A stretch of DNA of 31,378 bases from a virus (taxonomy: Duplodnaviria > Heunggongvirae > Uroviricota > Caudoviricetes). Every line of letters begins with the position of its first letter. Position 1 is the first letter of the stretch. Positions 1 to 31,378 of the stretch are shown one piece after another. A program made the translations under genes and the position numbers. The notes under the pieces are model-generated. The model made no database searches. It worked only from the letters and a program-made list of their open reading frames with translations, and had not been told where the DNA came from. The stretch covers positions 1 to 31,378 of the IMG/VR virus record IMGVR_UViG_2648501787_000011; one strand, 5' to 3'.

Positions 1-567
1 CATATCACCCAGCATTAACGTGCCGGATGCACCCGATGAAAAAATATTGTCACCACTACCAATACTCACCTGAATTTTGTCAGTCCGGTCATCTGGTACA
101 TAAAACGATGTATTTCCAACTAATGAGCGGTTGCAGTACAGACTGGCTGAGACATAGCCGTTTTCGTTTCGCGTTGCGAAAATTTCATAGTAATAACTGG
201 CTGCTTCATCAGGATACGGGGTTGTAAATGAATAGCCATTAATCCTGATGTGGGATGGCGAAGATGAATATTTCTTTCCCGCACTTAATGTCAGACGAAA
301 TCCCAGCTGTACAGCTGAGGCTTTTAAGTCCGGAAGTGTGCTGTACAGTGTGACATATGAGGATGTCGTGAAAATCAGCCCCGTTCTTTCTACAGTATTT
401 ACGGCCTGAGTGCCACGACAGACGGATGTTACAGAACCGGACATATCATTGATAAGCGTGACACCGTTTTCGTTCAGTGCTGAAATAATATTTGTTGAAT
501 AATAGTTCTCGCACAATCCCTCATTCGCCGGAATTTGTCGAAAACTTTCGAGTTTAATAATATTCAA
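1..567 (-). CDS. Tail fibre / receptor-binding protein, N-terminal part (runs off window start)
   Basis: Minus-strand frame is open for 189 codons from TTG at 567..565 to position 1 (checked triplet by triplet, no stop). AAGGAG lies 7 nt upstream. Translation is S/T/N/G/Y-rich, AT-rich DNA, directly downstream of the gp48-like gene. Not in the ORF track because no in-window stop. Confidence 0.5.
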   Translation of the reverse strand, partial: MNIIKLESFRQIPANEGLCENYYSTNIISALNENGVTLINDMSGSVTSVCRGTQAVNTVERTGLIFTTSSYVTLYSTLPDLKASAVQLGFRLTLSAGKKYSSSPSHIRINGYSFTTPYPDEAASYYYEIFATRNENGYVSASLYCNRSLVGNTSFYVPDDRTDKIQVSIGSGDNIFSSGASGTLMLGDM

Positions 568-590
568 AGCGGCTCTCCTTTTATTTTATG

Positions 591-1565
591 TCATTCGGAC
601 GTGACCACAGCAAAATGCAGTCCCGGGTGATTAATCAATAACGGTTCACGGGTTCTGCTGGCTGTCTGCAACTGCATGCTGTTAACCGGTACGGGGGAGC
701 GGGTCCTGTATCCCGTCTGCAACTGTGCGCTGTTCATGGTCATGGGGTCCGTTGTCGGCAGACCTGAGTGCAATTGCGCCCTGCTGAGTACCAGTGGCTC
801 TGCCATCGGACGGGCGGCATAAAAGTTAATCCGGTTAATTGTCAGCGGCTTACCTGTCAGTGCCGGAACAAGTGCAAAATGCAGCCCTGCACGGTTAACC
901 GTTAACGGTTCTTCTGGTTTATATCCGGCCTGAATCTGTATGCGATTAACGGATAATGGCGGACCGGACACAGCCTCATCGTTACCATCGGTGTAAAAAA
1001 ACTCATACCCTGTTCCACCCATGCGGTAATTTTTCAGGAGACATTCCAGCTCGCGGGTGCGTCCGCTGATTAATGGTGTCATGACATCATCAACACAGGT
1101 AAAACGCCCGGCGTCGCTGTCCTGAACCTCCACTTTCAGCAGCCAGCGATACCGCGCCGGATGCAGCGGGTACATGCAGTCGCGCAGGCAGTGATGCGGC
1201 AGAACGGCCGTCACCTTGATGGTGAAGCCCAGCGCCGCAGCAGCGGCTTCAATCTGCCAGGTTGCCAGCCCACCCTTGCGGCGGTATTTCTCCACCACGG
1301 CACGACGGCGGGCTTCCGTTGTGGTGGCGGCAATTCCGCATTCCGGCAGCGCCAGATACTGCTCCCACTCCGGCAGCAGCTGGAGCGTGGTTTCCGGGCG
1401 CATCTCCACATGCAGACGCGAGGCGTCGTATTCAATGCGGGTTAAACGCGCTGCAAGCGCCCTTAAAAAACGGTTTAAATCCGCGTCGTTATCACGCGGC
1501 CATGCTTTACCCCGTGGCATGACCTGTTGCAGTGCGGTCAGCCATTCCGTCACGCTGTGAGCCAT
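591..1565 (-). CDS. Baseplate wedge protein, Mu gp48 / P2 gpI-like, with C-terminal tandem-repeat extension
   Basis: 324 aa, last gene of the baseplate block before the fibre ORF. Residues ~202-320 are seven repeats of ~17 aa with P-[LM]-x-[VI]-N-[RS] cores (PLSVNRIQIQAGY, PLTVNRAGLHFALV, PLTINRINFYAARP, PLVLSRAQLHSGL, PMTMNSAQLQTGY, PVPVNSMQLQTAS, PLLINHPGLHFAVV). Confidence 0.65.
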   Translation of the reverse strand: MAHSVTEWLTALQQVMPRGKAWPRDNDADLNRFLRALAARLTRIEYDASRLHVEMRPETTLQLLPEWEQYLALPECGIAATTTEARRRAVVEKYRRKGGLATWQIEAAAAALGFTIKVTAVLPHHCLRDCMYPLHPARYRWLLKVEVQDSDAGRFTCVDDVMTPLISGRTRELECLLKNYRMGGTGYEFFYTDGNDEAVSGPPLSVNRIQIQAGYKPEEPLTVNRAGLHFALVPALTGKPLTINRINFYAARPMAEPLVLSRAQLHSGLPTTDPMTMNSAQLQTGYRTRSPVPVNSMQLQTASRTREPLLINHPGLHFAVVTSE

Positions 1566-2626
1566 GTCACCTCCCCGATGGTGATAAGCTCATCCACATC
1601 ACTGGTGGTGTCTTCCCCGATGTTGAGAAAGTAATCTGTAATGCCGGATGTCATACCGATGGCCGTGCGCAGCGAGGACACCGGCAGCATCTGACCAGGG
1701 GCCAGCGTTTTCTGTAATGCGGTCAGGTTTGCCCGGACGGCGTTCCTGTTCGCCTGGCCGTCCGGTGTCAGACGGATGGACAGGTCGACTTTCTTCAGCC
1801 TGACCTGAACCGGCCAGACCTCAATGCCGCCCGGTTTGCCCACCATAACCCCAGTGGCCGGGTGTTTGTGGCAGAACAGATACTGCTCCATTGTCTTCAG
1901 GTCTTTGCGGGTCGGTACAATATCTTCACGATCATCGTAAAGCCATGCCAGTCCGACCGTGCCGGGGCCGTGCCACGCATCCCACGCCCACGCGCGGCTG
2001 ACGCCAGCCACTTCGCGAGCCCAGATGACGTAATCATGCAGAGCACCGCCCACCGGGGGATTGCGACGCACATACAGCAGACGGTCCAGCAGCTCCGCGA
2101 TGGATTCAGTGTCTGCGCCACCGGTGATGCCACCTTCAGCCACCACGCCTGCACTGGCCGTTCCGGGCAGCGGAGATAACAGGGTCAGCACGGCACCGGC
2201 AGCAAGATTACCCGCCACCCCGGCTTCTTCAGCCTGCACAATGACGGTGACCTCGCCGTCCCGTACCTCACCGGATGTGAGCACCTGGTACACCTGATTC
2301 GTGTCGGACTGCATCCGTGTTTCAGCCGGAAGGAGAGACTGACTGGTGAAGGTCACCGGCCCGCTGGCAAAGGTGGCCTGTTTGCGGATAACCCCTTCAT
2401 ACGTTGCTGTTTTGATAATGGTTTCATCATCAGACGTGGCGGACGGGATTATCTGGTCCTTAATCCAGCTCTGATGGTCGTATAAATCCCGGACCTGACT
2501 GCTGAATGACACGTTCAGCGCCTGCTCAACACTGACAGGCGGCAGCTTTTGCAGGCCGAGTTCATACGCAATATCTTTTTCGCCGTCGGCAATCAGTTTG
2601 CCCAGCGTGGGGATTTCATACGGCAT
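1550..2626 (-). CDS. Baseplate protein, Mu gp47 / P2 gpJ-like
   Basis: 358 aa; position between gp46-like and gp48-like ORFs; start overlaps upstream gene stop. Confidence 0.7.
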   Translation of the reverse strand: MPYEIPTLGKLIADGEKDIAYELGLQKLPPVSVEQALNVSFSSQVRDLYDHQSWIKDQIIPSATSDDETIIKTATYEGVIRKQATFASGPVTFTSQSLLPAETRMQSDTNQVYQVLTSGEVRDGEVTVIVQAEEAGVAGNLAAGAVLTLLSPLPGTASAGVVAEGGITGGADTESIAELLDRLLYVRRNPPVGGALHDYVIWAREVAGVSRAWAWDAWHGPGTVGLAWLYDDREDIVPTRKDLKTMEQYLFCHKHPATGVMVGKPGGIEVWPVQVRLKKVDLSIRLTPDGQANRNAVRANLTALQKTLAPGQMLPVSSLRTAIGMTSGITDYFLNIGEDTTSDVDELITIGEVTWLTA

Positions 2627-30179: not shown

Positions 30180-30385
30180 AAGCTGTACTTGAAATGATGC
30201 GTGAAGTAATTGCTTTTCGTGTCTTTAATGAATCAAAAGCTGTTTCCAACAATCTTTCGCGTTTCAAGATGTAACGGCTAAAATCTATCCTACAGGCTTG
30301 CAAGCCCCGCTAAATCTAATCCCGCCAAATCCCGAATAATCCAATGTCCTCCCGGTTTTTTTCGTACTTCACGTGAATCAATACA
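30180..30385 (-). repeat. Mu-type left end (attL) with MuA-binding sites
   Basis: Reverse complement starts TGTATTGATTCACGTGAAGTACGAAAA (L1-like); second site around 30258-30275 contains TGAAACGCGAAAG (L2-like); further CGAAAA repeat inward. Confidence 0.8.
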
Positions 30386-30397
30386 ATGTTCAATTCC

Positions 30398-31378
30398 TTA
30401 CTTACTGATAAGACGGTCAAGGGCGACAGCCGCGATAATTAATCCGCCCATCACCACCAGTTGGTAATAGGTTTGTACCTGCAAAATATTCAGACCGTTG
30501 TTGATGGTGCCGATGATCAACCCGCCAATCACCACAGAGAAAATGCGCCCCTTGCCGCCGAAGAAACTGGTGCCGCCAATGATGGCGCTGGCAATGGCAT
30601 AGGTTTCAAAACCCATACCGGCAAGCGGTTCTGCGGCACCGAGTCGTGCAGTTGAGACGACGCCTGCCAGACCTGCACAAACACCGGAGATGATAAACAC
30701 CACCAGGATGTGGAATTTCACGTCAATCCCGGAATAGAACGCCGAGTTTTTGTTGCCGCCCAGTGCGTAGATGTTGCGCCCGAGCCGCATACGCGTTGTC
30801 AGAAACCAAAGGATGAGCGCGACAATTAGCGAGAAGATAACGGGGACAGGTATCCCAATTACGCTGGCGGCAAAGAAGTTCACGAAGTCAAATGAGAAGC
30901 CGTATACCGAGTTGGCATCGGAGATCACCAGCGTGATCCCACGGAAAATAGCGTTGGTGCCAAGGGTGATAATGAACGGGTGTAGTCCCGTCCAGTTGAC
31001 CAGGCAGCCGTTGATCGCCCCCAGTGCGCCGCCAACCAGTACACCGCCAATCAGCGCCGCGAGAAACGGATCAATACCTGCCAACATCAGTTTAGCGGTC
31101 ACCATACCGGAAAGCGCCAGAATCGCGCCAACCGAAAGGTCGATACCAGCGACCAGGATAGCGAAAAACTCGCCCATGCCGATCAATACCGTCACGGAGC
31201 TTTGCACAAAAATCTGGGTAATATTATTGGTGGTCAGAAAATATTCTGACGACAGCGAACCAAAAATGGCGACGATGATTGCCAGGATAAAAAAGGTGCC
31301 GTATTTATCCCAGAACAGCGCAAAGTTGAACGGTTTCTTCTCGCTCGCTTCGCTTTTTACTCTTGTGGTAAAGCCCAT
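30398..31378 (-). CDS. Host sugar ABC transporter permease (RbsC/AlsC family)
   Basis: 326 aa polytopic membrane protein; start codon is the last 3 nt of the window. Length and family fit a D-allose/ribose-type permease, but the gene name is not verifiable here. Confidence 0.85.
   Translation of the reverse strand: MGFTTRVKSEASEKKPFNFALFWDKYGTFFILAIIVAIFGSLSSEYFLTTNNITQIFVQSSVTVLIGMGEFFAILVAGIDLSVGAILALSGMVTAKLMLAGIDPFLAALIGGVLVGGALGAINGCLVNWTGLHPFIITLGTNAIFRGITLVISDANSVYGFSFDFVNFFAASVIGIPVPVIFSLIVALILWFLTTRMRLGRNIYALGGNKNSAFYSGIDVKFHILVVFIISGVCAGLAGVVSTARLGAAEPLAGMGFETYAIASAIIGGTSFFGGKGRIFSVVIGGLIIGTINNGLNILQVQTYYQLVVMGGLIIAAVALDRLISK

Follow-up and report, generated by a model that had tools for sequence, protein, structure and literature searches.

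Modular exchange of receptor-binding parts is well known in tailed phages. How are such parts held on the baseplate? In Mu, a wedge contains a single copy each of gp46 and gp48 and two copies of gp47, and the 2025 cryo-electron microscopy structure shows the N-terminal part of the gp49 trimer docked on a loop of gp48 (PMC11915804). The contact between TssG and TssK in the type VI secretion system (T6SS) is comparable (PMC6300606), in that once-per-wedge, single-chain adaptors of the gp7/gpI class hold host-binding proteins by short peptide segments; a 2:1 stoichiometry is found both in T4, as (gp6)2(gp7)1, and in the T6SS, as (TssF)2(TssG)1 (PMC6300606). Here we describe a departure from this plan in a window of 31,378 nucleotides (the whole stretch of DNA that was analysed, positions 1-31,378 of IMGVR_UViG_2648501787_000011), which comes from a complete-looking Mu-like transposable prophage of E. 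coli. A cassette of 1.5 kb has been inserted in frame at the 3′ end of gene 48, and we consider, with a probability of roughly 0.6, that it is a portable connector joined to an accessory carbohydrate-binding adhesin. The window covers the upstream two-thirds of this two-part cassette, and the genes described for it lie on the minus strand of the window.

An in-frame insertion at the end of gene 48

The open reading frame (ORF) at 591-1565 encodes 324 aa. A preliminary description, made from the letters of the window, had called it a gp48-like protein of unusual length, and the comparison agrees: Mu gp48 has 180 aa, nearly all of the 116 homologues returned have 178-200 aa, and the window protein lies outside the ~175-200 aa of a single-domain PF10076 protein. 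Its first ~196 residues are nevertheless a clear member of that family. Phage_Mu_Gp48 (PF10076) matches aa 11-191 with 104 bits against a cut-off of 37.4, phrog_203 (baseplate wedge subunit) covers aa 1-199 with an E-value of 1.6e-61, and Mu gp48 aligns to aa 4-196 at 31% identity, its end (...HDGDN) sitting opposite ...YTDGND, where the extension starts. Beyond this point Pfam gives no match (aa 193-324, even at E≤1) and PHROG none (last 132 aa), so that the profile searches bore out the wedge domain foreseen at the N-terminus and failed to return the fibre-repeat family foreseen at the C-terminus. Because Baseplate_J, GP46 and Mu Gp45 (Pfam) are encoded upstream, the ORF takes the place of gene 48 in a baseplate operon of the Mu type, with Baseplate_J (gp47) immediately before it in the order gp44-45-46-47-48. 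Thus, in its N-terminal domain, in its place after Baseplate_J and in the fibre with a Mu S-like N-terminus that follows beyond the insert, the locus resembles those of Mu gp48 (BW3), P2 gpI and E. coli YmfQ; it differs by 130 extra C-terminal residues of a repeat that is absent from Mu, from D108 and from 50,697 phage records. The fusion is not a sequencing error. Positions 1-2000 of the window are 99.5% identical to 23 complete E. coli chromosomes, and 23 complete E. coli genomes have the same gp48-repeat ORF, in frame, at an identity of ≥99%; variants of it are found elsewhere.

How did the extension arise? A sibling prophage, L012, has a canonical gp48 of 194 aa (92% identical; P0003), followed by the same 269-aa fibre, Tfa, a 464-aa PF08400 (StfN) fibre, a DUF4376 protein, com and mom. 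Comparison of the window-type locus L001 with L012 by blastn revealed an in-frame insertion of 1,521 bp whose ends fall precisely at gp48 codon ~192 and at the fibre gene's ATG, two points that in L012 are only a few codons, a stop and 3 nt apart. Nucleotide identity to the sibling gp48 is 93% down to window 989, and the junction is clean, reading ...YYYTGE* in the sibling and ...FFYTDGNDEAVSGPPLSVN... in the window. The 269-aa fibre downstream, whose first ~75 aa are clearly homologous to the N-terminus of Mu S/gp49 (the part that docks on the gp48 loop in Mu), is retained together with Tfa; the primary fibre system is therefore intact, and the cassette is an addition. A swapped host-range module, with a separately acquired receptor-binding protein, had been suggested from the letters. 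A foreign origin is supported, in that the C-terminal module is found elsewhere at the C-terminal end of fibre N-terminal halves and the AT-rich gene behind it was acquired together with the module, whereas the event itself was an insertion and not a swap.

The seventeen-residue repeats

The extension consists of a six-residue linker and a tandem array (Table 1). Seven 17-aa repeats had been placed at about 606-965; there are indeed seven units, but one of them has 20 aa and the array occupies 594-959. The periodicity is strong in the protein, with a substitution score at lag 17 that stands at z = 16.8 over shuffles and was reached by 0 of 5000 shuffles. It is visible in the protein only, since the units are too diverged for Tandem Repeats Finder to detect anything in the DNA. 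No match to the repeat module was found in Pfam, PHROG or the PDB; profile searches of 177,635 PDB sequences with the whole module and with a two-unit profile gave chance-level matches only, and no shaft protein at E≤10. Used alone in a word-indexed homologue search, the module returned one partial match, a search for the repeat patterns in species-representative genomes found nothing, and the module was traced through full-length and context searches. Among copies with dS of 0.24-0.90, the ratio of nonsynonymous to synonymous substitution (dN/dS) in the module is 0.25-0.31 in the gp48 frame and 0.86-1.64 in the other two frames. The extension is therefore a maintained coding sequence under purifying selection, rather than debris.

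An inventory of units across loci showed that the motif L-x-F-A-V closes the last unit of nearly all modules (GLHFAVVTSE, VLQFAVLSAA, WLNFAVTNE and GLSFAFVTPLQ are examples). The sole module without it, that of L010, is paired with the sole lectin-like protein (see below) that lacks the conserved N-terminal strand MNIIxLEGF. This single case hints that the terminal unit is a candidate docking strand for the lectin-like protein, with strand-to-strand docking. Unit 2 of the seven-unit modules also bears the terminal signature, which suggests that such a module is a two-unit module joined to a five-unit module, and two docking sites per arm are possible. Across loci the modules have from 4 to 8 units, and close relatives are not alike in this number.

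The wedge domain and the array meet near a run of seven T residues. An extra T or a -1 shift at this run would yield a product of 194 aa ending in ...FFLHRW*, equal to the canonical gp48 length. Both the run and the -1 stop at the same codon are kept in a divergent copy (L029), and both are absent from gp48 lineages B, C and D (Table 1) and from the canonical sibling. We considered a conserved slippery site at the fusion point as a general feature and rejected it, given that the run is restricted to lineage A; there it could permit slippage or phase variation, or be due to chance.

The lectin-shaped partner

The next ORF has its own Shine-Dalgarno sequence and TTG start, is AT-rich (42.7% GC, against 59.4% for the gp48 domain) and rich in S, T, N and Y (37% of residues), and leaves the window, all as first described; its frame differs from that of gp48. 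Joining of the two ORFs by readthrough or frameshift was rejected, because the relative frame varies between loci and no lectin gene lacks a ribosome-binding site and start of its own. The complete protein has 352 aa. Its sole PHROG match is phrog_8291 (E 4.5e-242), no Pfam family matches at E≤1, and a profile search of the PDB with the family gave chance-level results only. The AlphaFold2 (AF2) model, built on a 24-sequence alignment, is compact and all-beta, with a predicted local distance difference test (pLDDT) score of 90.3 and a predicted template-modelling score (pTM) of 0.89. It matches concanavalin-A-like (ConA-like) jelly-rolls and can be superposed on lectins, carbohydrate-binding modules and lyases, in agreement with Foldseek against the PDB, at 4-15% sequence identity to all such matches. 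The best full-length matches, among BFVD models, are uncharacterised two-jelly-roll proteins of ~320-370 aa from the siphophages JS26, AchV4, Kokobel1, Motura and JC01 (TM-score 0.56-0.70, E down to 5e-14), of which that of AchV4 carries the name 'virion structural protein'. These share the fold over the full length but only 10-16% sequence identity, and no repeat connector is known for them. The preliminary description had taken the AT-rich ORF for a fibre. It matches no fibre family, and as modelled it is not elongated but a compact, globular, lectin-shaped protein of ConA-like jelly-roll domains; we call it the lectin for short.

The family is small. It forms 27 clusters at 90% identity, nearly all from E. 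coli, and has 17 representatives at 50% identity among 1.84 billion proteins, all of ≤368 aa; among species representatives (185,579 species) it was found in E. albertii alone.

Recurrence on other anchors

We examined the upstream flank of the lectin gene in the 32 loci where it could be read; these were drawn from look-ups of contigs, from a collection of E. coli genomes and from IMG/VR. A repeat-bearing ORF of 4-8 units ends 12-30 nt before the lectin gene in 29 of the 32, and a scan in the reverse direction, from the repeat module, led to the same contigs or to contig ends. In two loci (L020 and L022) the lectin gene comes after the fibre and Tfa, and gp48 bears the repeats. The pair of connector and lectin recurs in Escherichia prophages on at least six anchors, namely four gp48 lineages, Stf-type N-termini and a P2 H-type N-terminus (Table 1), and it is also present in a P2-like Raoultella prophage. 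Intact cassette ORFs occur in 55 of 5,426 complete E. coli genomes (~1%). Of the finding that the preliminary description named as refuting it, half therefore holds: homologues of gp48 with the same length and the same repeats exist, though not in Mu or D108. The architecture is recurrent rather than unique to the window.

In the lambdoid loci the gene order is J, lom, StfN with repeats, and lectin, and the lectin replaces the receptor-binding half of Stf together with Tfa. Side tail fibres of the lambda Stf type (PF08400 with PF03406 repeats) thus share with our locus the 17-aa module and the lectin partner, which follow their N-terminal halves; the difference is that the anchor in the window is a wedge protein, and that only a truncated PF08400 remnant exists further downstream, off the window. 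Because the same pair is found on these other anchors, the repeats appear to act as a portable adaptor.

Several variants of the architecture were observed. Lineage C (L031, L032, L033; IMG/VR) has an extra immunoglobulin-like (Ig-like)/CarboxypepD_reg-like domain and an acidic linker before the repeats, and contigs that otherwise resemble each other closely have either 4 or 5 of its near-identical units; the array is therefore still expanding and contracting. The most divergent lectin homologue (L006, 5002-7357) is preceded by a PF08400 protein of 257 aa that has no repeats and by an ORF of 64 aa, and is itself followed by an 88-aa ORF; this layout may use a different connector. In a single record, P0043 (a Logan contig, 324 aa), the whole gp48 domain is deleted and the ~270 N-terminal residues of a lineage-B Baseplate_J run straight into the linker and repeats; it is probably a degraded prophage or an assembly chimera. 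In the enterotoxigenic E. coli (ETEC) strain ETEC6 (L013, 5385-6344), the label that the NCBI Prokaryotic Genome Annotation Pipeline (PGAP) gives to an intact 319-aa gp48-repeat ORF is 'YmfQ family protein, incomplete, missing C-terminus', with no annotation over the repeats; this artefact hides the architecture in ~30 complete genomes.

Proposed function and competing explanations

What might the cassette do? We propose that its first part is a connector of ~130 aa, made of the short linker and seven units and ending in the hydrophobic L-x-F-A-V strand, which is attached covalently to gp48. Taking gp48 to be present once per wedge and six times per virion, the gp48 domain would join the wedge and still dock the primary, Mu S-like fibre, while the connector would project from each wedge and recruit the lectin-like protein, probably via the terminal unit. 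The phage would in this way gain a second, carbohydrate-directed host-binding device. The fibre-docking loop region of gp48 aligns with that of Mu, but there is a 15-aa indel nearby and the AF2 model is poor there. Compared with the TssG-TssK and gp48-gp49 contacts, in which internal loops hold trimeric partners, the arm proposed here is a C-terminal tandem repeat, and the resemblance would be one of functional analogy and not of homology.

Some observations weigh against this proposal. Nucleotide and protein searches of the 50,697 phage records with the cassette, the repeats and the lectin found no match in any isolated phage, which bears on a function in infectious particles. For the 324-aa protein, AF2 gave a poor monomer model (pLDDT 49, below 50 in the repeats), which is unusable for the repeats and does not give the structure of the connector. 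No fused repeat-lectin protein of the 'Rosetta-stone' kind exists among the 1.84 billion representatives. The ConA-like fold class is generic; it is no proof of sugar binding, and it does not tell a lectin from a lyase. One locus, L006, has no clear repeats, its lectin being 39% identical. Finally, we infer that the connector and the lectin bind each other, that they occur in the virion, that sugars are bound and that host range is affected.

The repeats might instead form a homotrimeric fibre shaft of the triple beta-spiral type, as in adenovirus and reovirus, with the 352-aa protein as a trimeric knob; a shaft had also been the first interpretation of the repeats. The unit pattern P-L-x-V-x-x-x-x-L-x-phi, with its period of 15-20 aa, appears similar to the shaft motif of the adenovirus fibre and of reovirus sigma1 in its period and in its pattern of proline and hydrophobic residues. 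An obligate oligomer would be expected to look unfolded as an AF2 monomer, as the module does, and the Stf-type and P2 H-type N-termini that also bear it are parts of trimeric fibres. Yet four independent gp48 lineages carry the module, and with one gp48 per Mu wedge (PMC11915804) a homotrimer would hardly form in the usual way. The profile searches described above found no shaft among the PDB sequences, the knob of those viruses is part of the same chain whereas the lectin is not, and the lectin models confidently as a monomer (pTM 0.89). We therefore regard a shaft as unlikely. More economical would be an adaptor that works as one chain here and in three copies where the fibre is trimeric. 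It is also conceivable that the lectin is no part of the virion at all, being cargo (a lysogenic-conversion or exclusion factor) or a chaperone of the connector, and that the repeats alone form an appendage. Its gene is found at the distal end of the late operon, a place in which cargo genes accumulate, and is the last prophage gene in the lambdoid loci; its GC content is low and it has no annotated function. Against such a role stand its tight linkage to the repeats, seen on at least five types of anchor and in three tail architectures, mostly across a gap of 12-30 nt and with a separate ribosome-binding site; its replacement of the receptor-binding half of Stf and Tfa; a full-length fold that matches phage proteins, one of them named as a virion structural protein; and the absence of a signal peptide on direct reading of the N-terminal sequence. 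Cargo or chaperone thus seems an improbable role.

Could the fusion be an accident of prophage decay or assembly, the long gp48 being without function? A loss of 1.65 kb in this prophage has reduced its second fibre locus to a StfN remnant, PGAP marks the lineage-B copies as incomplete, and truly degraded copies (E94 and P0043) exist. Against this, an unbroken in-frame ORF is found in 55 complete genomes and in numerous IMG/VR contigs, each of four gp48 lineages has a full wedge domain, dN/dS is ~0.3 in frame and ~1 or more out of frame, and the remainder of the prophage looks complete; we consider decay highly improbable. The proposed connector-and-adhesin cassette also admits a bolder version. 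Because units 2 and 7 both carry the L-x-F-A-V signature, several units may each hold a lectin. The array would then be a new kind of docking module, independent of oligomeric state, by which one lectin-like adhesin could be placed on a single-copy wedge protein or on a trimeric fibre, and which gives each wedge a multivalent 'bottle-brush' adhesin; the run of T residues in lineage A could, through slippage or phase variation, provide short and long gp48 side by side. We offer this version as speculation and think it unlikely.

Features and surrounding locus

Table 1. Features of the gp48-repeat-lectin region in the window, and the anchors that carry the repeat module.
Feature	Position	Strand	Basis or remark
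gp47/Baseplate_J wedge protein (context)	1550..2626	-	Pfam PF04865, E 5e-58
gp48/YmfQ baseplate wedge (BW3) domain, aa 1-~196	977..1565	-	Pfam PF10076, phrog_203, Mu gp48 alignment, sibling identity
T7 run, codons F189-F190-Y191	995..1001	-	6 nt upstream of cassette boundary
Upstream cassette boundary	988..989	.	homology to sibling ends at 989; cassette from 988 past window position 1 to ~-532
Linker EAVSGP between wedge domain and first unit	960..976	-	translation; alignment to Mu gp48 end
Seven tandem units, aa 203-324	594..959	-	consensus P-L-x-[IV]-N-[RS]-x-x-L-Q-x-G-x-x-x-x-E
Unit 1 PLSVNRIQIQAGYKPEE	909-959	-	17 aa
Unit 2 PLTVNRAGLHFALVPALTGK	849-908	-	20 aa; 'terminal type'
Unit 3 PLTINRINFYAARPMAE	798-848	-	17 aa
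Unit 4 PLVLSRAQLHSGLPTTD	747-797	-	17 aa
Unit 5 PMTMNSAQLQTGYRTRS	696-746	-	17 aa
Unit 6 PVPVNSMQLQTASRTRE	645-695	-	17 aa
Unit 7 PLLINHPGLHFAVVTSE, terminal	594-644	-	17 aa; L-x-F-A-V motif
TGA stop of gp48-repeat ORF	591..593	-	
Shine-Dalgarno AAGGAG (574-579) and TTG start (565-567) of next gene	565..579	-	TTG at same place in other loci
First 189 codons of 352-aa lectin-like protein	1..567	-	phrog_8291 (unknown function); remainder beyond window; full length from L001
Anchor: gp48 lineage A			window; L029 (6 units)
Anchor: gp48 lineage B (319-321 aa; ETEC and others)			L003, L013, many IMG/VR contigs
Anchor: gp48 lineage C (extra Ig-like domain)			L031-33; unit number varies among close relatives
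Anchor: gp48 lineage D (order gp48 with 7 units, fibre, Tfa, lectin)			L020, L022
Anchor: PF08400 Stf-type N-termini			L002, L008, L010, L025, L038-41
Anchor: PF12571 P2 H-type N-terminus			L026 and E. albertii (same layout)

The full locus can be read in NZ_CP086627.1, where a single strand encodes gp48 with the repeats (annotated 'YmfQ family protein'), the 352-aa hypothetical protein, the 269-aa tail protein, a tail fibre assembly protein, a truncated 'prophage tail fiber N-terminal' pseudogene, com and mom, followed by the prophage end. The preliminary description had named the rest of the fibre, any chaperone and a gin-type invertible segment as things to look for past position 1. The Mu S-like fibre and the Tfa chaperone are there; on comparison with the Mu locus, neither an invertase gene nor an inverted alternative set of fibre and chaperone of the Mu G-segment type was found in the full locus.

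The blastn comparison with L012 showed a second difference, a 1.65-kb deletion that truncates the second fibre. Off the window and downstream of Tfa (L001, 9655-10167), a truncated PF08400 ORF of 170 aa is the remnant of the second fibre locus, which in L012 consists of the 464-aa fibre and the DUF4376 protein. The second fibre has thus been lost in a prophage that bears the repeat-lectin cassette, which elsewhere sits on an N-terminus of that very type (PF08400).

At the other end of the window, a Mu-type left end (...TGTATTGATTCACGTGAAGTACGAAAAAAACC... on the minus strand) lies at ~30355-30397, within ~7 nt of the stop of a host gene resembling an ABC sugar permease (30398-31378, -). The 99.5%-identical prophage in NZ_CP086627.1 is inserted between yehR and yehQ. 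Because the host neighbours differ, this is the same element at different chromosomal sites, as expected for a transposable phage.

Implications

In the literature that we searched, on extensions of YmfQ/DUF2313/gp48 and on receptor-binding proteins with a ConA-like fold, the cassette was not found to be described. The repeat and lectin families are both absent from Pfam, and neither part has a characterised relative. For annotation, the finding means that phrog_8291 and the unnamed 17-aa repeat belong together, and that PGAP mislabels intact genes as truncated pseudogenes. Exchange of modular receptor-binding parts, which set host range, is the basis of phage and tailocin engineering; what is surprising here is the recurrent fusion of such parts to a single-copy wedge protein, which raises the structural question of how one adaptor serves both one-chain and three-chain anchors. 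If the connector and the lectin do bind, the cassette would offer tails of the Mu, P2 and lambda types a transferable second specificity that leaves the primary fibre untouched.

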